Position numbers and translations under genes: made by a program
Assembly (NCBI GenBank): GCA_013265495.1
Contig: MU057700.1
Location: forward strand, 558,001 to 588,310
Length of the DNA: 30,310 nucleotides
DNA from: Vicugna vicugna
Lineage: Eukaryota
Direction: 5' to 3'
Shown here: piece after piece, positions 1,111-24,727 of the stretch
How positions within the stretch are numbered: the stretch's first letter is position 1
Layout of the letters: each line of letters starts with the position of its first letter
The notes under the pieces: generated by a model
Seen by the model: only the letters and a program-made list of their open reading frames with translations
The model's database searches: none
What the model was told of the DNA's origin: nothing

Positions 1111-3028
1111 AGACTTTAAAAGATGGATATCATACTAAGTATCTTCTCTACAACAGAATAAAGTTAGAAATCAACCACAGAAGTAAAACTGGAAAATTCA
1201 CATATTTGTAGAAATTAAAAAACACAGTTTTAAACAACCAATGGATCAAATAAAAAATCACAAGGAAAATTAGAAAATACTTAGAGATGAATGAAAACAA
1301 AAAACACAATGTAACAGAACTTTCAGTATGCATTGAAAACAGTACTAAGGGGAAATTTACAGCTATAAATGTTTATCCTAAAAAAAAGAGAAAAATATCA
1401 AATCAACAAATTATCTTTACTACTTAAGGAACTAGAAAAGGAAGAACAAATGAAATCCAAAGGTAGTGGAGGAAAGAAAGAAAGATTAAAGTGGAGATAG
1501 ACAAAACAGGGAATAGAAAAACAATAGAGAAAATGAATAAAATCATAAGTTGGTATTTTGAAAAGATCAACAAAATTGACAAACCATTAGCTAGAAAGAC
1601 TAAGAAAAAAAGAAAGAAGACTTAAATTACTAAAATCAGAAATGAAAGTGGAGACATGGCTACTGATCTGACAGAAATAAAAAAGATATTAAGAGAGTAC
1701 TATGAAAAATTGTGCACACAAAAATGGGTAATGTACATGAAATAAACAAAATTCTATAAACACAAAACCTACTAAGACTAAATCATGAAGAAATAGAAAT
1801 CTGAATAGATATATAACTAGTGAGGAGATTGAATCAGTAATCAAAGATCTCCTGACAATGAAAAGCCCTTGGCCTTATGGCTTCAATGGTGGGTTCTACC
1901 AAATATTTAAAGAAGAATTTATACCAATTCTCAAACTTTTCCAAAAATTGAAGAGGAAAGAACACTTCTTAACTCATTCTGTGAAGCCTATATTACCCTG
2001 ATACCAAAGACAGATAAAGACACTACAAGAAAAGAAAACTATACATTGATACAGAAATTCTCAACAAAATCTTAGCAAATCAAATTCAGCAGCATAGCAA
2101 AAAGATTGAAAGGATTATACACCATGACCAAATGGAATTTATCCTTGGGATGCAAGGATACTTCATCATATAAAATCAACCAATATAACACACCACATTA
2201 ATAGAATAAGGAAGAACAGACACATGATTATCTTAATTGATGCAAAAATTATTTGACAAAAATGAAAACTCTTTCATGATAAAAAACAACAAGCAAACTA
2301 GAAATAGAAGGAAATTACCTTAATATCATAAAATCATATATGAAAAACCCACAGCAAATATCACACTCAATGGTGAAAGCTTTAAAACATTTCCTCTATG
2401 AACCAGAATAAACGAGGATGCCCACTTTCATCATTTTTGTTAATTAAATACTGGAAGTTCTAGCCAGAGCAATCTTTAGGCAAGAAAAAGAAATTAAAGG
2501 TATCCAAGTTGGAAACAAGTAGTATTATCTCTGTTTGCAGATTTTACGGTCTTATATGAAGAAAACTCCATAAAGATTCTGGGGAAAAAAAGTTAGAGCT
2601 ACTCAGCAAAGTAGCAGATACAAAGTCAACATTAAAAAATCAGTTGCATTTCTACACACTAACAATGAACAATCTGAAAAGGAAATTACAAAAACAATTC
2701 CATTTATAATAGCATCAAAAAGCATAAAGTACTTAGGAGCTGATGTAACTAAGGAGGTGAATGACTTGTATAATAAAAACTACAAAACATTACTAAAAGA
2801 AATTACAGAAGACATAAATAAATGAAAACACATCTCATGTTCATGGTTTGGAAGACAATATTGTTAAGATGCCAATACTGCCTAACAAAATCTATAGACT
2901 CAATGCAATCCCTATGAAAATCTCAATGATTTTTTTTTTTGCAGAAAAAGAAAACCCACCCTAAAATTCATATGAAATCTTAAGGGACTCCGAATAGCCA
3001 AAGCAATCTTGAAAATAACAAAGCTGCA
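1111..3028 (+). mobile_element. L1MB-type LINE-1, 5'-truncated; left part (end of endonuclease through RT)
   Basis: Collinear L1 ORF2 sequence restarting at the end of the EN domain; decayed RT motif ctgtttgcagat at ~2531-2542; breaks at ...aacaaagctgca (3028) and resumes at ~12975. Confidence 0.88.
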
Positions 3029-3193
3029 GAAGAGCAGCCAAGATGGCAGAGTAGAAGGACCTAATCTTACCTCCTCTCACAAGCACGCCAAAATGGCAAC
3101 TAATGGCAACTAACTCTAGAATAACCATTGATGAAAGAGACTGGAACCTGCCAGAAATTATCTTCTAGGAATAAAGACATAAATAAGGAACCA

Positions 3194-3290
3194 GAGGGGA
3201 GGGCATAGCTCAGTGGTAGAGTGTCTGCTTAGTGAGCACAAGGCCATGGGCTCAATCCCCAGTACATTCATTAAAAAATAAATAAATAAG
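3194..3290 (+). mobile_element. tRNA-derived SINE (Vic-1-like), 5' part
   Basis: ggggagggcatagctcagtggtagag...; Pol III A box TAGCTCAGTGG 3206-3216, degenerate B box ggctcaatccc 3249-3259, then an (aaat)n linker. Confidence 0.85.
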
Positions 3291-4227
3291 ATTTATGGTC
3301 AAGATGGTGGTATGGTAGGACCATGAGCTCACTTCTCGTGACTACAATGAAGCCACAACTGAAAGCTAAACAGCCATTGAAAAAATGACTGGAACCTAGC
3401 AAAGAAGATCTTCTGCAACTGGAAACATAAAGAAGAAACCAGGGCAGGATGGTAGGAGGGGTGTGCTCGTGATATAATTGGGCCCTATATCCCTGGGGTA
3501 GACGATCCCACAAGCTGAAGAATAGTTAAGTTGCAGAGGCCCTCCCACAGGAGTAAGAGCTCTAAGCCCCATGTCAGTCTCCCCAGCCTGGGTTACCAGC
3601 ATTGGGAGGAGAAGGAGACCCCAGGACATCTGGTTTTGAAGGCCAGTGGGGCTTGGCTCTGGGAGCCTCATGGGACTGGGGGAAACGGAGACTCGACTAG
3701 CTTGAGAAGTGTACATGGAAACACACATGTACTAGGTCCAAGGGCAGAAACAGTGATTTCATAGGAATCTGGGCCAGACCTGCCTGCTGGATTTGGAGGG
3801 TCTCCTGGGGACATGAGGGACAGCTGTGGCTCACTCAGGGGACATAAAAACTGGTGGCAGACATTCTGGGAGTGTTCATCTATATGAGCTTTCCTGGAAG
3901 CTGACATCTTGATTGGATCATTAGCACTAAGACCTAGCCCCACCTAACAGCCTGTAGGGCTGCCTCAGGCCAAACAACATACAGGGTGGGGAACACAGCC
4001 CCACCCATCAGCAGACTTCTTAAGCCACAAAGGCCTCTAGACACAGGCTTACCCACCAGAGATCCAGGAACAAGCTTCACCCAGCAGTGTGCAGGCACTG
4101 GCTCCTCCTGCCAGGAAACCTGCATAAGCCTCCAGTCGAACCTCATCCACCAGGGGCAGATACTAGAAATAAGAAAACAACAATACCAAAGTCTGTGGAA
4201 GGAATGCACAAACACAAAGAAAGACAG

Positions 4228-5113
4228 ATGATCTGAGGCAGCAAAAGAATATTTCCCAGGCCAAGGCACAAGTTAAAATCCCAGAAGAAGAAATAAGTGA
4301 TGAGGAGATAGGTAATTTGTCTAAGAAAGAGTTTAAAGTAATGACGGTGAAGATGTTCAGAGAACTCAAGAGGAGTATAGATGCACAGAGTGAAGTTTTC
4401 AGCAAAGAGGTGAAAAATATAAAGAATACCCAAACAGAGTTGAAGAATAAAATCACTGAAATGAGCAATACACTAGAAGGAACCAAGAATAGACCAAATG
4501 CAGCAGAAGTAAGCTAGAAGACAGATTAGCTGAAATCACTACTTCAGAACAGAAAAAGGAAAAAAAGAATTAAAAGGAATGAGGATAGTTTAAGAGAACT
4601 CTGGGACAACATGAAGCACTCTAATATTTGCATTACAGTGGTCCCAGAAAGGAAAGACAGAGAGAAAGGACCTGAGAACATTTTTGGAGAGATAATACCC
4701 CAAAACTTCCCCAACTTGGGAAAAGAAACAGTCACCCAAGTCCTGGAAGTGCAGAGAGTACCACACAGAATCAGCCCAAAGAAGAACACATCAAAGCATA
4801 TAGTCATCAAATTGACAAAAATTAAGGATAAGGAGAAAATATTAAAATCAGCAACAGAAAAGCAACAAATAACATACAAGGAATCTCCCATAAGGTTATC
4901 AGCTGATTTTTCAGCAGAAACTCTACAAGTCAGAAGGGAGTGGCATGATATATTTAAAGTGATGCAAGGGGGAAACTTACAACCAAGAATACTCTACCCA
5001 GCAAGGCTCTCATTCAGACTTGGAGAAATCAAAAGCTTCACAGATAAACAAAGCTAATAGATTTCAGCACCACCAAACCAGCTTTACGACATATATTAAA
5101 GGACCTTCTCTAG
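4228..5113 (+). pseudogene. Disrupted L1 ORF1p (RNA-binding protein) of element B
   Basis: KEFKVMTVKMFRELK, NIFGEIIPQNFPNL, HIVIKLTKIKDKEKILK, PIRLSADFSAETLQVRREWHDIFKVM, QPRILYPARLSF; stop TAG 5111-5113; several stops/frameshifts; start position approximate. Confidence 0.9.
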
Positions 5114-5173
5114 TCATCAAACCATAGGGAAAGAGAACAAAAAGAAGAAAGAGAAAAAAAAAAGACCTACAAA

Positions 5174-5690
5174 AGATTGTTTTAGCTGTCTGGGGTCTTT
5201 TGTGGTTCTGGTGATTTTTGTAATTGTTTGTTCTAGTTCTTTGAGGAATCTCATGAGTATTTTGATGGGGGTTGTGTTGGATCTGTGGATTTCTTTGGAT
5301 AGTGTGGCCATTTTGATAGTGTTGATTCTTCCAACCCAAGAGCACAAGAAATCTTTCCATTTCTTTGTGTCATTTTGGTTTTTGGAGTAATGGTAACCTC
5401 CTTGGTTAAGTTTACTTCTAGGTATTTTGTTGTTTTTGATGCAATGGAAATGTTTATGCCAGTTATAAAATTCTGGTTTTTGAAATGAAAAAAGAAAAGT
5501 GAATGAAGGGCTGCAAATGGCAAAATGTCCTTTCTTATGGGTGAGTTGTCTTCCTTTACATATATATATATATGCTACATTGTCATTATCTATTCAATTA
5601 TTGATGTGTACTTAGGATGCTTCTATGTCTTGGCAATTATAAATAGTGTTGCTGTTAATAGCAGGGTGTATGTATCTTTTTGAGTTAATT
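5174..5690 (-). mobile_element. Two non-collinear antisense L1 ORF2 fragments inside element B
   Basis: 5174-5460 reads on the minus strand as CSWVGRINTIKMATLSK and TTKYLEVNLTKEV (post-RT region); ~5515-5690 is the antisense of the ORF2 C-terminal region. Confidence 0.85.
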
Positions 5691-5831
5691 CTTATTTTGT
5701 AGTTGGCTTTATTCCTTTTATAACTATATAAGTTTAAAAAGCTAAAGCTCTAAGCGTTCTTAGAAACAATGAAGGGTATATATATGTAAATTACAAAATA
5801 TATGAGCAGTTAAAAAAAAAAGAAGAAGAAG

Positions 5832-6349
5832 AAACGAGCCATGAAAGACATGGAAGAAACTTAAAGGACATATTACTAAATGAAAGAAGCCAATCTGAAA
5901 AGGCTACGAACTATATGATTCCAACCAAATGACATTCTGGAAAAGACACAGCTACAGAAACAATAAAAAAGATTATGGTTTCCAGGAGCTTGGGGAAAGG
6001 GAGGGAGGGAGGAATGAATAGATGGAGCACAAGGGATTTTCAAGGAAATGAAATTATTCTGTATGATACTATAGTGGTGGCTACATGTCATTATGCATTT
6101 GTCAAAACCCATAGAATGTACAACATCAAGAGTGAATCCTAATGTGAACTGTGGACTTTGGTTGATAGTAATGTGTCCATGTTGGTTTATTGACTGTACC
6201 AAACATGCCACACTGATGAGGAATGTTGAAGGTAGGGGAATATATATGTGTGGGTGGGGAGGGCTATGTGTGAACTTTCTGTATTTTCTGCTCAATTCTG
6301 TTATAAACCTGAAACTGCTCTAAAAAAATTAAGTCTATTAATTAAAAAA
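5832..6349 (+). mobile_element. L1MC-like 3' end forming the tail of element B
   Basis: gaagccaatctgaaaaggctac, ttgtcaaaacccatagaatgtacaac, cctaatgtgaactgtggactttgg, aacctgaaactgctctaaaaaa are typical of L1MC1-type 3' ends. Confidence 0.8.
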
Positions 6350-6425
6350 AAATAAGCCTGATTACCTTTCCCCCAGTAAAACAACAACCAAAAAACCCCA
6401 AAAGCTGAAAGAAAACAAAAAACCA
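6350..6425 (+). mobile_element. 3' part of the split Vic-1-like SINE and its A-rich tail
   Basis: aaataagcctgattacctttccccc followed by a degenerate poly(A); matches the aaataaacctaattacctcccc tail I recall for this SINE; ends at aacca, which also precedes the 5' half. Confidence 0.7.
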
Positions 6426-7379
6426 CAATGAGATGAGTAGGAGGGGTGGACTCCCAATATAATCAAATCCCATACCCCCTGGGTGGGTGACCCACAAACT
6501 GGAGAATAATTATATTACAGAGGTTCTCCCATAGGAGTGAGATTTGTGAGTCTCATGTCAGGTTTCCAGTCCAGGGGTCTGGCCCTGGGAAGGAGCCCCC
6601 AGTTCATTTGGATTTGAAGGTCAGAGGGACATGATTGCAGGAGCTTCACAGTATTTGGGGAAATAGAGACTTCACTCTTAAAGGGCACATACAAATTACA
6701 CACACTGGGACCAAGGGTGAAATCAGTAATTTGAAAGAAGCCTGAGCTAGACCTACCTGCTGGTCTTGGAGAGTCTCCTGGGGAAGCAGGGGCAGCTGTG
6801 GCTCACCCTGGAACATAGACACTGGTGGTGGACATATCAGTGATCATTTTCTGCTTGAGTTCTCCTGGAGGCTGATGTCTTAGCACCAATACCTGGCCCC
6901 ACCCAACAGCCTGTAGGCTGCAGTGCTCCAATGCCTCCGGCCAGACAACAAACTGGGTGGAGACACAGCCCCATCCATCAGCAGACTGCCTATGACTTCC
7001 CGAGCCTACAGCTACCTACAGACATGCCCCTAGACACAGCCCTGCCCGCCAGAGGGTCAAGGCCCAGTTCCACCCACCAGTGGGCAGACACCAGCCCTTT
7101 CCACTAGGAAACATGCACAAGCCTATATACCAGCCTCACTCACCAGGGGGCAGACACCAGAAGCAAGAAAACTATAGTCAGTCTTGCAGCCTGAAGACCA
7201 AATCTGCAAGACAGGCCAGATGCTACCCTGAGATCAGCTGTCCCCTGGTCCTTGGGGATGAGAGGGGAGTGAACTGCTGGGATGCATAGAACAGCTCTTA
7301 CAGAGGGCCACACCTCCAAGGTCAAGAAATGTAACTAACCTATCACATACACAACAATACAAACAGTAATTTAGACAAA

Positions 7380-8255
7380 ATGAGGTGACTGAGGAAGGAA
7401 CGAGATAAAACCCCAGAAGAAGAACTGTGACATGAAGATAGGCAATCTATCTGAGAAATAATTCATAGTAATGATCCTGAAGATGATAAAAGAACTCAGG
7501 GGATAATGAATGCACAGAGCAAGAAGTTAGAAGTTTTTAACAAAGAATTAGAAAATATAAAAACAACGAAACAGAACTGAAGAATACAATAACTGAAATG
7601 AAAAAAAAATGCACTAGAAGGAATTGATCGTAGACTAGATGAGGGAAAAGAATGGATCAGTGAGCTGGAAGACAAAGCAGTAGAAATCACTGCCACCAAA
7701 CAGAAAAAGGGAAAAAGAATGAAAAGAAGTGAGGACACTTTAAGAGACCTCTGGGACAATATCAAGCATGCTAATATTCTCATTATAGGAATCCAAGAAG
7801 GAGAAGAGAGGGCCTGAGAAAATATTTGAAGAGATAATAGCTGAAAACTTGCCTAACCTGGGAAGGGAACTACTCACCCACATCCAGGAAGTGCAGAGTC
7901 CCATACAGGATTAATCTAAAGAAGAAAACACCAAGACACATTGTAATCAAAATGAAAAACACTGAAGATAAAGAGAAAACATTAAAAACAACAAGGGAAA
8001 ATAAAATATAACATACAAGGGAACTCCCATAAGTCTCTCAGCTGATTTTTCAGCCAAAACTCTGCAGGCCAGAAGGAGGTGTCATGATATACTGAAAGTG
8101 ATGAGAGAGAAAAACCTACAACCAATAATACTCTACCCAGCAAGGCTCTCATTCACATTTGATGGAGAAATCGAAAGCTTTACAGATAAGCAAAAGTAAA
8201 AGAATTCAGCACCACCAAATCAGCTTTACAACAAAGGCTAAAGGAACTTCTCTAG
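7380..8255 (+). pseudogene. Disrupted L1 ORF1p of element A
   Basis: Collinear with ORF1 of element B (ctctgggacaa, gctgatttttcagc, tactctacccagcaaggctctcattc); ATG 7380, TAG 8253-8255; multiple stops and frameshifts. Confidence 0.88.
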
Positions 8256-8538
8256 GCAGAAAAGGAAAGGCCACAACTTGAAACAAGAAAATTACAAAAT
8301 AGAAAAGCTCACTGGTAAAGGTTAGCATACAATGAAGGTAGGAAATTATGCACACACAAAGCTAGTAGGGAGGTTAAAAGACAAAGATGGTAAAATCATC
8401 TCTAGCCACAATACACAGTTAAGCATACACAAAACAGTTAGATGCAATATCAAAAACAGTAGTTGTGAAGGGAAGAAAGTACAAATGCAGAGTAGCTAAA
8501 ATGCATTTGAAATTAAGAGACCAACAACTTAAAACAAG

Positions 8539-8541
<3 letters not shown>

Positions 8542-8578
<37 letters not shown>
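8542..8578. repeat. (AC)n microsatellite in L1 inter-ORF spacer
   Basis: About 18 perfect AC units. Confidence 0.97.
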
Positions 8579-8584
<6 letters not shown>

Positions 8585-9780
8585 ATGGTAACTGTAAAAC
8601 AAAAATCTATAATAAATATATGCACAAAAAAAGAAAAAAGAATCCAAACATAACAGTAAAGATAGTCATCAAATCACAACAGAAGAGAACAAAAGAAGAA
8701 AGAGGGGGGAAAACTACAAAAAAAATCCAAAACAATTAGCAAAATGGTAATAGGAAAATACGCATCAATAACTATAAATGTAAATGGGCTAAATGCTCCA
8801 ACCAAAAGACACAGATTGGCTGAATGGATACAAAAACAGGACCTATATATGCTGCCTGCAAGAGACTCACTCAGATCTAGAGTCATATACAGACTAAAAG
8901 TGAGGGTCTAGAAAAAAGTATCCCATGCAAATAGAAATCAAATAAAGCTGAAGTAGCAATATTTATTTCAGACAAAATAAACTTTAAAATAAAAACTGTT
9001 ACAAGAGACAACGAAGGACACTACATAATGATCAAAGGATCAATCCAAAAAGAAGTTATAACAATTCTAAATATATATGCACCCAACATAGGAGCACCAC
9101 AATATATAATATATAAGGTAAATGTTAAAAAAGACATAAAAGGAGAAATTAACAGTAACATAATGAAAGTGGGGAACTTTAACACCTCACTTACATCAAT
9201 GGACAGATCATCAAGACAGAAAATCAAAAAGGAAACAGACCTTAAATGACATATTAGACCAGATGGATTTAATTGATATTTAGAGTATTCTATCTGGAAG
9301 CAGCAGAATACACATTCTTTTCAAGTGCACATGGAACATTCTTCAGGACAGATCACATGCTAGGCCACAAAGCAAGCCTTGGTAAATTTAAGAAAACTGA
9401 AATCATATCAAATATCTTTTCCAACCACAATACCATGAGGCTAGAAATCAACTACAAGAAAAAAAAACTGTGAAAAACACAAACACGTGGAGGCTAAACA
9501 ATACACTACTAAATAACCAATTGATCATTGGAAAAAAACCTGGAGAGAAATAAAAGTGAAAACATGATGATCCAAAACCTATGGGACACAGCAAAAGCAG
9601 TTTTACCAGGGAAGTTTATAGCAATACAAGCTTATCTCAGGAAACAAGAAAAATCTCAAGTAAACAACCTAAACTTAACACCTAAAGCAACAAGAGAAGG
9701 AAGAACAAAGAAAACCCAAAATTAGTAGAAGGAAAGAAATGATAGAGAATAGAGCAGAAATAAATGAACTAGAGACTAAA

Positions 9781-9800
9781 GAGAGAGAGAGAGAGAGAGA
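9781..9800. repeat. (GA)n microsatellite within ORF2
   Basis: gagagagagagagagagaga. Confidence 0.9.
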
Positions 9801-12404
9801 AGATCAATGAAACTGAAAGCTGTTTCTTTGAAAAGATAGACAAAATTGATAAACCTTTAGCCAGACTCATTAAGAAAAAAAGAGAGAGGGCCCTAATAAA
9901 AAAATTCAGAAATGAAAAAGGAGAAGTTACAACTGACATCACAGAAATACAAAGGACCAAAAGAGACTACTATGTGCCAATAAAATGGACAACCTGGAAG
10001 AAACAGACAAATTCTTAGAAAGTTACAATCTCTCAAAACTGAACCAGGAAGAAATAGAAGCTATGAACAGATCAATTACCAGTACTAAAATTGAATCAGT
10101 AATTTAAAAACTTCCAACAAACAAAAGTCCAGGACCAGATGGCTTCACAGGTAAATTCTACAAAACATTTAGAGAAGACTTAACACTATCCTTCTGAAAC
10201 TACTTCAACAAACTTCAGAGGAGTGAACACTTCTAAACTCATTCTATGGGGCCCCCATCACCCTGATACTAAAACCAGACAATGATATCACACAAAAAGA
10301 AAATACAGTTCAATATCACTAATGAACATAGATGTAAAAATTCTCAACAAAATACTAGCAAACCGACTCCAAAAATATATTAAAAATATCAAACCCCACA
10401 ATCAAGTGGGATTTATTCCAGGGATGCAAGGGATTTTTCAGTATCCACAAATCAATCAATGTGATACACCATATTTATAAATTGAAGAACAAAAACCATA
10501 TGATTATTTCAATAGATGCAGAAAAATGTTGTGATAAAATTCAACATCCATTTATGATAAAAGTTCTTCAGGAAGTGGGCATAGAGGGAATATACCTCAA
10601 CATAATAAAGGTCATATGTGACAAACCCACAGCTAAAATCATACTCAATAGCAAAAAGCTGAAAGCATTCCCTCTAAAATGAGAAAAAAGATAAGAATTC
10701 CCACTCTAGCCACTTTTATTCAACATAGTTTTGGAAGACCTACCCACAGCAATCAGAGAAGGAAAAGAAATAAAAGGAATCCAAATCGGAAAAGAAGTAA
10801 AAATATCACTGTTTGCAGACAATGTGAATATATACATAGAAAATCCTAAAAATGGCACCAGGAAACTACTAGAACTCAACAACGAATTCGTTAAAGTTAC
10901 CAGATTAAAAATTAATATACAGAAATCTGTTGCATTTCTATACATTAACAATGAAATATTGGAAAGAGAAATTAAGGAAACAATCCCATTCACCGCTACA
11001 TCAAAAAGAACAAAATACCTAAGAATAAGTCTACCTAAGGAGACAAAGGAACTGTACTCTGAAAACTGTAAGACACTGATGAAAGAAACTGAAGAGGACA
11101 CAAATGAATGGAAAGATATATCATGTTTTTAGGTTAGAAGAATCAGTACTGTTAAAATGACTGTACTACCCAAGGAAACCTACAGATTCAATGCAATTCC
11201 TACCAAATTATCAATGGCATTTTTCACAGAACTAGGATAAAAAATTTTAGAATTTGTGTGGAAGCACAAAAGACCCCAAATAGCCAAAACAATCTTGAGA
11301 AAGAAAAACAGAGCTAGAAGAATCATCCTCCCTGACTTCAGACCATTCTACAAAGCTACAGTAATCAAAACAGTATGGTACTGTCACCAAAACAGATATA
11401 AAGAACTATGGGACAGAATAGAAAGCCCAGAAATAAACTCACACACTTATGGTCAATTAATCTACAACAAAAGATGCAAAAATATACAATGGAGAAAAGA
11501 TAATCTCTTCAATAAGTGGTGCTGGGAAAACTGACAGTTACATGTAAAAGAATGAAATTAGAGCATTCTCTAACACCATATACAAAAATAAACTCAAAAT
11601 GGATTAAAGATCTAAATGTAAGACCAAATATTATAAAACTCCTAGAGGAAAACATAGGCAGAACACTCTTTGACATAAATTGCAGCAATATGTTTTTGGA
11701 TCCATCTCTGAAAGTAATGGAAATAAAAACAAAAACAAACAAATGGGACCTAATTAAATTTAAAAGCTTTTGCACAGCAAAAGAAACCATAAACAAAACA
11801 AAAAGACAACCTATGGAATGGGAGAAAATATTTGCAAAGAATGACCTACAACAGATTAATTTCCAAAATATATAAGCAGCTCACACAGGTCAATATCAAA
11901 AAACAAAAACAAAAACAAAAAACCCAATCCAGAAATGTGCAGATCTAAATAGATATTTCTCCAAAGAAGACATACAGATAGCAAACCAACTCCAAAAATA
12001 TATTAAACAGACACATAAAAAGATACTCAAAATCACTAATTATCAGAGAAATGCAAATGAAAACTACAATGAGGTATCACCTCACACTGGTCAGAATGGC
12101 CATCATTAAAAAATCTACAAGTAATAAATCCTGGAGAGGGTTTGGAGAAAAAGAAACCCTCCTACATTGTTGGTGGTAATATAAATTGGTGTAGCCACTA
12201 TGAAAAACAGTATGAAAGTTTCTTAAAGAACTGAAAATAGAGTTGCCATATGATCCAGCAATCCCACTCCTGGGCATATGACTGGAGGAAACTCCAAGAT
12301 ACATACACCCCAGTGCTCCCAGCAGCACTATTTACAATAGCCAAGACATGGAAGCAACATAAATGTCCATCGACAGATGAATGGATAAATAAGATATGGC
12401 ACAT

Positions 12405-12453
<49 letters not shown>
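12405..12453. repeat. Compound (AC)n(GC)n(AC)n microsatellite
   Basis: acacacacgcgcgcacacac...; alternating purine-pyrimidine tract. Confidence 0.97.
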
Positions 12454-12455
<2 letters not shown>

Positions 12456-12974
12456 AATATTACTCAGCCATAAAAAAGAATGAAATAATGCCATTTGTAG
12501 CAACACAGAAGGACCTACAGATTATCATACTAAGCGAAGGAAGTCAGACAGAAAGACACATATCATATGACATCACTTATATGTGGAATCTGAAAAAAAT
12601 GATAGAAATGAACTTATTTACAAAATAGAATAGACTCACAGAGATAGAGAACAAACAAATTTCTGGTTACCAAACGGGAAAACCAAGGAGTGGGGAGGGA
12701 TAAATTAGGAGTTTGGTATTAATATACACTCACTACTATATATAAAATAGATAAACAACAAGTACCTGCTGTATAGCACAGAGAACTATATTCAATATCT
12801 TATAATAAACTATAATGGAAAAAGAATCTGAAAAAGAACATATAAAAACTGAATTACTTTGCTGAAAACCTGAAACTAACACAACACTGTCAATTAACTA
12901 CACTTCAATAAAAAATGGTTAACAAAAAAACATTAAAGATGTCAGTAAATTTATTTTTACCATGTGGGGATGAC

Positions 12975-14399
12975 CAAACCTGCAAGACTCTCACCTCCTG
13001 ATTTGAAAACTTACTCTAAAGCTAAAATAATCAAAACAATGTGGTACTGGCATAAAGATAAACATATAAATCTATGGATTTGAATTCAGAGTCTAAAAGT
13101 AAACCCAGATATCTATGGTCAAATGGTGCCAAGTCCATTCAAACAGTGGAAAGAATAATATTTTCAACAAATGATGCTGGGACAACTGGATAGCCACTTG
13201 TGAAAGAATCAGATTGGACCCTTACCTCACACCATTTATGAAAATTAACTCAATAAGTAGCAAGGACATAAATGTAAGAGCTAAAACTATAAACCCTTAG
13301 AAGAAAACAAGGAACAAATCTTCATCACTTTGGATTTGGTACCAACTTCTTAGATATGAAATAAAAAAACATAAGCAACAAAAGAAAAGATAGATAATTT
13401 GGAATTGATTCAGTTTTAAAACCCTCCATACATCAAAGGAAACCATCAAGAAAGTAAAAAGACACCCACAGAATGAGAGAAATAATTTCAAAATATATAT
13501 CTGGTATTCAGAATATATAAAGAACTAAAACTCAACAACAAAAGGACTAACAGCCTAATTTTTAAAATGGGCAAAGGACTTGAATAGACTTATCTGCAAG
13601 GAAGATATACAAATAGCCAACAAGAACATGAAAGGACACTCAACATCATTAGCCATTAAGGAAACGCAAATCAAAACCACAATGGGATATTCCTTCACAT
13701 ACGTTAGGATGACTGTAATGAAAAATAAATGGGAAATAACAAGTGTTGTTGAGGATGTGGAGAAACTGAAATCTTCAAACACCGCATCTGGGAATGTAAA
13801 ATGGTGCAGCTACTGTCGAAAACAGTTTGATGATTCTTCAGTAAATTAAACTTAAAATTGCCACATGACTCAGCAATTCCACCCCAGGTAAACACCCAAG
13901 CAAACTGAAAGTTTATGTCTACACAAAAATTTTTACACAAATGTTTGTGGTGACATTGTTCATAATAGCCCATATGTCCGTCAGGTGATGAATGGATAAA
14001 CAAATGTGGTATATTCATATAATGGAATAATATTTAGCCATAAAAAGGAATAAAATATTGATGCATGCTTCAAAATGAATGAACTTGGAAAATATGCTAA
14101 GTGAAATAAGCCAGATATACAAAACCACATATTGTGTGATTCCATCGATATGAAATATCCAGACTAGGCAGATCTATTGAGACAGTAAGCAGAATACTGG
14201 CTTCCAGAGGCTCAGGGGAAGGGTGGTAATCGGGAGTGATTGTTTAATGGTTACAGGGTTTCTTTTGGGGGAGATAAAAATGTTCTGAAACTAGATCATG
14301 GCAATGGCTTCACAGTATTGTGAATGTACTGTAAGCTGCTGAGTTGTCCTCTTTAAAATGGTGACTTTCACATCATGTGAATTTTACCTCAATAAAAAA
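12975..14399 (+). mobile_element. L1MB-type LINE-1, right part (ORF2 3' region, 3'UTR, tail)
   Basis: Continues where 1111-3028 stops (gactctcacctcctgatttgaaaacttac); [13 protein letters not shown]1MB-like 3'UTR ending ttttacctcaataaaaaa. Confidence 0.88.
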
Positions 14400-14959
14400 G
14401 GAGTATTTGATAGAGAAATTCAGAGAGAAAGCCAAGGGAATGCAAAAGAAAAAGATACTGAGAAAAAATGTGTGAAATCTAAATTCTGTTTTCTATATGC
14501 TACAAAGGTTGAGCAAAAGTCAAACTAATAATAAATTGAAATACATGATCCATGGTAAATAGTATTCTAGGAATGACATAAATAAGAGACAGACAAATAG
14601 GAGAGGGATGAAATAGATGATAAACCCTCTAGAGAAGACCTAGAATGTCAAATCTAGAATGTAGAGGCCTCCCAAGCATCCCTCAGCATGAAAAGGTAAC
14701 TCAAGTTCACAGTCAGAACAGCTCAGGTCAAAGGCTATTTTTTCCCTCTGGCTCCACCTTCAACCACTTACATGTGGAAACTTGAGCACCACTTCCAATA
14801 CTTCCATGCTGGTTCTGAGAATGCAGCTCTGGAAATTCTTAGAGCCTGTCCGTGCATTCACGGAAATGTACTGTTCAGCCACACCCTTGGCCTTCCCTTT
14901 GTAGCACGTTTCCTAACAGCTGCATCGCTGGAGAGCTCATTTACTCAGGTGATGACGAG

Positions 14960-24173: not shown

Positions 24174-24353
24174 TATAATGTTAACTGTAGGTTTTTTTGT
24201 AGATGCTCTTTATCAAGTTGAGGAAATTCCCCTTCATTGTTATTTTTTCTGAGAATTTTATCATGAATGGGTGTTGAATTTTTATAAAGTTTTTGTCGTA
24301 AAGTACACATAACCTGAAATTTACCACTTAAAGCATTCTGAAGTGTACATTCA

Positions 24354-24694
24354 GTTCAGGGAGAGGGAGAGAGGGAGGAATGAATAAATGGAGTACAAGG
24401 GATTTTTAGGGCAATGAAATTATTCTGTATGATACTACAGTGGTGGCTACATGTCGTTATGCATTTGTCAAAACCCTCAGAATGTACATCAAGAATGAAC
24501 CCTAATGTGAACTATGGACTTTGTTTGATAATAATGTGTCCCTGTTGGTTCATCGATTGCACCAAATATGCCACACAGATGAGGGATGTAGGGGAGTATA
24601 TATGTGTGGGTGGGGAGGGCTATGTGTGTTTTCTTCACAGTTCTGCTGTGAACCTGAAACTGCTCTAAAAAATAGTCTATTAATTCAAAAAAAA
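24354..24694 (+). mobile_element. 5'-truncated second copy of the element-B 3' end
   Basis: Aligns to ~5995-6349; A tail at 24687-24694; TSD gtacattca at 24345-24353 and 24695-24703; inserted into a short antisense L1 tail remnant (24300-24725). Confidence 0.85.
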
Positions 24695-24727
24695 GTACAT
24701 TCAATGCCAGGTAGTGAACATTCGCTA

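Follow-up and report, generated by a model that had tools for sequence, protein, structure and literature searches.

The window, by which we mean the whole stretch of 30,310 nucleotides of Vicugna vicugna DNA that was analysed, contains two copies of a 3' end of the kind that we take to be L1MC. L1MC elements date back about 100 My. One copy terminates a longer repeat, here called element B, and the other makes up a short insert further downstream. The question raised by this locus is how two tails of apparently ancient type can be so similar to each other. The preliminary description proposed that the tail had been re-amplified recently by retrotransposition. The origin of the insert was followed from its own structure to the family to which it belongs, and from there to a subfamily of element B that carries a gene.

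Structure of the insert

Global alignment of positions 24354-24694 with 5991-6352 yields 303 identities in 338 columns (89.6%, K2P 0.113), with 35 substitutions (26 transitions and 9 transversions) and four internal gaps of 3, 7, 11 and 3 bases; the earlier hand count was roughly 30 substitutions over about 335 bases, or ~90%. BLASTN within the window gives the match an E value of 5e-111. A 32-base string that had been noticed in both tails occurs exactly twice in the window, at 6241 and 24597. The insert was correctly read from the start as a 5'-truncated copy with an A tail and a perfect 9-bp target site duplication (TSD), whose positions are given in Table 1. The 9-mer of the TSD is found three times in the window. 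The target site at 24345 is not the canonical TT/AAAA, the TSD being preceded by aagt on the left flank. Similarity to element B ends at both edges of the insert and the flanks of the two copies cannot be aligned; similarity reaching into the flanks, named beforehand as a sign of local duplication or gene conversion, was looked for and is absent.

With its 341 bases, the insert is what remains of a mobile element of camelids, long inactive, that encoded just one of the two L1 proteins. Taken alone, it is one ordinary copy of a HAL1, new or possibly already catalogued.

Table 1. Features of the window, with the gene-carrying and source loci found elsewhere in the genome
Feature	Position	Strand	Basis or remarks
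Older, decayed full-length L1 (5'UTR, ORF1, ORF2, 3'UTR)	3031..12930	+	host of the SINE and of element B
Left part of tRNA-like camelid SINE	3196..3289	+	sequence; split by element B, tail resumes after 6353
Full-length element B, HAL1-type, 3.06 kb	3290..6353	+	inside A-rich part of the SINE, within 5'UTR of the older L1
Element B 5'UTR, GC-rich	3290..4232	+	alignment; 70% identity to 5'UTR of L1 at 6421-7179
Element B ORF1 (L1 ORF1p)	4233..5113	+	PF02994, PF17490, PF17489
Remnant of L1 inter-ORF spacer	5111..5172	+	alignment; 88% to 8663-8704
Two antisense L1 ORF2 fragments	5173..5443	-	alignment; 76% to 11296-11086 and 11068-10997
Antisense L1 ORF2 end / 3'UTR fragment	5510..5688	-	alignment; 77-83% to 12501-12296
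AT-rich linker, family marker	5689..5805	.	no counterpart among the remaining L1 pieces of the window
Captured L1MC-like 3' end, AATAAA-type signal	5810..6345	+	comparison with 9 old copies; start approximate
Left TSD gtacattca	24345..24353	+	repeat match with right copy
5'-truncated element B copy, last ~345 bases	24354..24686	+	alignment; wholly within the captured L1MC-like tail
Poly(A) tail remnant, 8 A	24687..24694	+	sequence
Right TSD gtacattca	24695..24703	+	perfect match to left TSD, 9 bp
5.36-kb gene-carrying unit (L053:1501-5853 with L069:1-1221)	G000:C12398:1456465-1461821		
Further gene-carrying copies	L054 with L070; G000:C677:622192-624833		
Source paralogs without element B	G000:C5852, C8806, C5165, C7813, C9947, C11485, C7688, C3701; L073, L074, L076, L077		

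Young tails and old L1MC-like ends

The tail of the insert was placed in a set of 55 young and 9 old tails. Eight of the old tails come from the top 10 matches of one search and one lies in locus L022; all nine were chosen by likeness to one old copy and possibly do not represent the closest old subfamily. Subfamily names L1MC1-3 are listed in the available part of PMC5753468. The low-divergence clade that had been predicted among L1MC-like 3' ends does exist: mean K2P is 0.108 between young tails and 0.272 between old ones, while young and old tails differ by 0.391. Young tails lie at 0.059 from their own consensus and old tails at 0.12-0.17 from theirs. Of 65 diagnostic columns, 60 show the young state in the insert and one shows the old; its K2P is 0.076 to the young consensus and 0.314 to the old.

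The element B consensus from about position 2524 onward shares 78-80% identity with the nine old copies over ~500 bases, which ties its tail to an ancestral L1MC. The two groups differ in what precedes them. In all nine old copies the upstream DNA matches sense sequence of the L1 ORF2 end, whereas sense ORF2 precedes the young tail in none of the 29 other tail-selected loci, which are the best-scoring ones only; all 29 match element B upstream until the copy is truncated or interrupted or the locus ends. That the insert is a genuine old L1MC copy was rejected, since it lies 0.076 from the young consensus, against 0.12-0.17 for old copies from their own, and lacks sense ORF2. Repeat annotation would mislabel the young tails as ancient.

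Organisation of element B

Four levels of nesting are seen in the window between 1350 and 14400, where element B lies in a SINE, the SINE in the 5'UTR of an L1 (3031-12930), and this L1 in an older L1M-type element (1350-3030 and 12960-14400). The SINE at 3196 is presumably of the Vic-1/ALPINE type, and ARAGORN found no tRNA in it. Vic-1 is described as a camel SINE in the available part of PMC3531059.

The L1 that hosts the SINE served as in-window comparator for the 5' half of element B. In the majority consensus of element B (3,061 bases), positions 150-895 are 70% identical to the 5'UTR of this L1 and positions 973-1839 are 80% identical to its ORF1. Positions 1834-1876 correspond to a piece of its spacer; ~400 bases of the spacer of this neighbouring L1 are missing ahead of the piece, and a TAG is shared at the join. 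Two antisense ORF2 pieces (1900-2171) and an antisense L1 3'-end piece (2237-2405) come next. Sense ORF2 is absent from the consensus, in which ORF2 is represented by ~270 bases of antisense scraps. The 5'UTR would presumably act as an internal promoter.

The majority consensus, built from 24 element B copies, has an ORF1 of 297 open codons that lies at a K2P of 0.20 from the nearest full-length L1 copy compared. The window copy has three frameshifts in this frame, and none of the 24 full-length copies retains it intact. Protein searches with ORF1 returned ordinary L1 ORF1p matches, with a best full-length identity of 66% and no close camelid entry. Of the named pig and peccary ORF1 proteins, the closest share 62-64% identity with the ORF1 piece of element B, a likeness that has no bearing on structure.

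In its organisation, element B has the design of a HAL1, a class reportedly treated by Smit in 1999 and by Bao and Jurka in 2010. HAL1 elements are non-autonomous L1 derivatives encoding only ORF1p, according to the available parts of PMC5753468, PMC5786205 and PMC13756887, the first of which gives them independent origins in several mammal lineages. Element B is like them in having an L1 5'UTR and an ORF1 open in the consensus, with no ORF2, and in its dispersed copies with A tails, TSDs and 5' truncations. It differs in its 3' half, which consists of antisense L1 scraps and a captured older L1MC-like end instead of its own L1 3' end following an internal deletion. The pig Repbase subfamily HAL1_Ssc (available part of PMC6501411) is likewise a HAL1 of an artiodactyl and is compared here by name only. 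Literature searches brought up neither a camelid HAL1 nor a gene-carrying family of this kind, and the available parts of the camel transposable element surveys PMC8605555 and PMC6675863 describe none; Bao and Jurka 2010, Xing et al. 2006, supplements or Repbase/Dfam may list one. Element B may thus already have a name in Repbase/Dfam. What distinguishes it as a HAL1 is the fossil tail that it captured, together with the subfamily that carries a gene.

The element B family and its age

The genome searched comprises 2.03 Gb in 12,405 contigs. Forty candidates were scored in every genome search, which biases the results to the best matches; in the tail search these were the best 40 of 3,470 first-look candidates, from which 30 loci were cut out. 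When element B itself (3290-6353) was the query, 24 of the 30 loci cut spanned it end to end at 84-88% identity, so that the earlier view of element B as a family holds. The full-length copies have unrelated flanks and A tails. TSDs are clear in many copies (e.g. L034, L036, L037, L046, L047 and L048) and weak or not found for many others, L054 included. The 5' truncation points are scattered, and one copy (L021) is inverted. Mean K2P is 0.067 to the consensus (0.056 without CpG-like sites) and 0.123 between pairs. A tree of 30 copies is star-like, with a median end branch of 0.063 and support for 4 of 27 inner branches.

A 24-base motif of the tail has 957 matches in the genome at no more than 2 mismatches, against none for the reversed control. 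As 18 of 25 near-full-length copies pass this cut, the family is estimated at ~1,300 copies or more. The linker of element B gives 1,202 first-look candidates. The mean density of the family is about one copy per 1.5 Mb, and the suggestion that two copies in 30 kb point to a high copy number does not stand: the number is moderate and the pair in the window is a local excess. A motif scan of metagenome contigs gave no match, a result that is uninformative on the range of lineages.

The tail distances (0.059 for young tails and 0.12-0.17 for old ones), set against ~100 My for L1MC, give element B an age of about 40 My. The rate of 5e-9 per year used in the available part of PMC8605555 gives 11-13 My. 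The preliminary description was right in that the insert is an independent retrotransposition of a re-amplified old tail, while its "recently" has to be stretched to tens of My, as copies are on average 6.7% from the consensus and 0/24 ORF1 frames are intact. The element B family is dead and old, yet far younger than its tail implies. Both the window copy and L045 are inserted into a camelid-type SINE, and in L044 element B lies directly behind one, so that its activity must postdate the origin of this SINE.

Three of the 24 full-length copies (window 3280-3290, L044:1472 and L045:1452) start within the A-rich stretch of one and the same kind of SINE, a favoured target of element B. Tandem duplications occur inside the tails of some copies, as in L060 from 4205 onward, where ~170 bases are repeated. 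L004 has a second, upstream tail piece and L058 a short repeat at the junction (4369-4410).

Origin and mobilisation of element B

The master of element B would be an L1 that lost everything past its spacer and was then joined to genomic L1 debris. The order of the two antisense pieces is unlike that of one inverted L1, so that joined debris is favoured over one inversion event. Starting at the L1 promoter, transcription would have crossed the debris and stopped at the poly(A) signal of a fossil L1MC; the fossil end could in this way become the 3'UTR of element B. The RNA, probably bound by its own ORF1p, would have borrowed ORF2p in trans from autonomous L1s and been copied by target-primed reverse transcription, producing the ~1,300 or more copies, most of them 5'-truncated. 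A single burst is proposed because of the star-like tree. The master locus was not found among the best-scoring candidates. It is very probable that the insert derives, by 5' truncation, from a HAL1-type element of camelids with this read-through origin and with a second, gene-carrying round of read-through, described below.

Other accounts of the insert fit the data less well. The pair in the window might have arisen by local duplication or gene conversion, and the presence of two copies within 18 kb and of a third member of the family 34 kb past the window end is denser than the genome mean would give. Against this, the flanks of the two copies are not alignable and the insert has its own TSD. 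When the 54 young tails are ranked by distance to the insert, element B comes only 37th, and the two share just four non-consensus columns, each of which is present in other copies too. Local duplication is thus extremely improbable, and the pair consists of family sisters rather than of parent and daughter, as expected from the independent insertion originally proposed. The young tails could also stem from an autonomous L1MC lineage that survived late in camelids, given that they are clearly L1MC-like and were amplified long after the old copies; such a lineage is very hard to reconcile with the 29 other best-scoring tail loci, none of which runs into sense ORF2 and all of which follow element B, although a rare autonomous partner may lie outside this best-scoring set.

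A less remote, though still unlikely, alternative is that element B was transcribed passively from a single rearranged L1 locus that had a strong promoter. It would then resemble a processed pseudogene and behave as a long SINE or a retrocopy family, to whose spread ORF1p made no contribution and which is a HAL1 in looks only. The star-like tree with little subfamily structure agrees with such an origin, as does the lack of a significant selection signal on ORF1. Silent changes account for 21/56 of shared ORF1 variants against 111/575 of single ones (raw p=0.003); selection on ORF1 was dropped as a conclusion from this contrast when p rose to 0.11-0.43 once transitions and transversions were separated. 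What speaks against a passive transcript is that ORF1 stayed open over its 297 codons in the consensus despite its distance from the nearest L1, while the other L1 parts are rearranged scraps.

A subfamily that carries a gene

In loci L053, L054 and L058 element B ends at consensus position ~2860, within the tail, and is followed by an A run and by the same unrelated sequence. L053 and L054 are 87.7% identical over 5.36 kb, have different flanks and share a terminal AATAAA and A tail. A 17-bp TSD with one mismatch encloses the whole unit in L053, while that of L054 is weak or not found. The extension continues for 2.5 kb after element B and includes a frame of 208 codons, or 245 from an upstream ATG. 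The junction between element B and the extension is spanned in 25 of 40 scored candidates, 26 with L058, which makes at least 26 dispersed copies; one of these lies 34 kb past the window end. The 3' end of the subfamily yields 182 first-look candidates.

The cargo frame is 70% identical to a Camelus ferus protein, 69-70% identical to unnamed Camelus proteins, and 54% identical to a protein from fox that bears the name "cTAGE family member 9" and for which the Atlas gives feature matches to TANGO1-like clusters at 0.92 and 0.88. No convincing Pfam match and, in the protein search, no longer homologue were found for the frame. On these resemblances the cargo appears to be a host gene, cTAGE/TANGO1-like. 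Three related Camelus database proteins (P0001, P0002 and P0020) have a duplicated N-terminus or an unrelated insert, which suggests gene-model errors or further chimeras in camels. A second partial match to the C-terminus of the cargo is seen at G000:C45:116762-116950, just past an open copy, as an internal duplication.

At ten places on eight contigs a native 5' flank takes the place of element B (Table 1); nine of them cross the junction point and one is upstream only. L073 and L074 have a common 5' flank without element B, and L076 and L077 a common 3' flank without an A tail. L053, L054, L078 and L080 have an A run at the same 3' site where source-type ends have none. Because these four copies end in an A run and the aligned source paralogs share native flanks, the reading adopted is 3' transduction, with a single member of a gene cluster as the source. 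An element B copy cut inside its tail would have lain ~1.2 kb upstream of a member of the multicopy cTAGE/TANGO1-like gene. The fused RNA would have ended at the poly(A) site of the gene and been retrotransposed at least 26 times, as a second round of read-through. An element B-bearing master of this subfamily was not found. C112, the sole candidate checked at both ends, proved to be a retrocopy that ends in an A run and whose 5' side is unreadable. Some source contigs hold two paralogs, and the three source contigs of given length are small, at 23-80 kb; many more diverged relatives are listed, at low coordinates. The source paralogs look like an ampliconic gene cluster, which we would guess to be on a sex chromosome.

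A full-length stop-free cargo frame is present in 9 of 26 junction copies, by a hand tally that does not include start codons. Under neutrality, at the rates observed in element B, a frame would stay free of stops with a probability of 0.14-0.20 and would acquire 2.5-3.8 frameshifts per kb, leaving ~1.3-4% of frames intact; by our estimate a younger age raises this to ~10%. Without the query copy, 8 of 25 frames are open, which has p=4e-6 if 4% survive by chance and 0.002 if 10% do, and the ORF1 of element B is intact in none of its 24 copies. Selection on the open cargo frames is suggested by this excess. That all gene-carrying copies are dead retrocopies, their frames being open through a younger age or a lower indel rate, is about equally credible: noncoding K2P between L053 and L054 (0.083-0.108) is somewhat below the family mean of 0.123, dN/dS of the cargo in this comparison of one pair (0.42) borders on the lowest values of the dead-ORF1 control (5-95%: 0.43-0.81), and p is 0.11 if 20% of frames survive by chance. 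Four RNA-seq runs, all from one study and labelled "reproductive system metagenome", contain between 0.19 and 0.26 of the words sampled from the junction and cargo, a word match that is no evidence of expression.

The fullest account of these data is offered tentatively, and we give it somewhat less than an even chance. A half-L1 may have extended itself twice by read-through, into a fossil L1MC end and then into a whole host gene together with the 1.2 kb that precede it. It would in this way have spread a cTAGE/TANGO1-like gene to dozens of dispersed sites in camelids, where selection may have kept several copies open as camelid-specific genes.

The case closest to this subfamily is SVA-AMAC, of which Xing et al. 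in 2006 reportedly described three copies. The available part of PMC3123540 presents SVA-mediated AMAC genes as 3' transduction of whole genes. Both systems involve a non-autonomous retroelement whose transcription continues into a gene downstream of it, followed by retrotransposition of the fused RNA. They differ in that here the carrier is an ORF1-coding half-L1, the junction copies number at least 26, and the source is itself a multicopy gene family.

Significance

A repeat whose sequence marks it as ancient can have been inserted in one lineage only. In camelids, more than a thousand "L1MC" tails are young, and landscapes of repeat age as well as estimates of the neutral rate are biased by them; the same tails are usable as phylogenetic markers in camelids. 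Element B offers a clean case of HAL1 formation in which the 3' end of a dead element was recruited. If it is true that the open cargo frames are under selection, this would be a larger retrotransposon-driven spread of a whole gene than SVA-AMAC.
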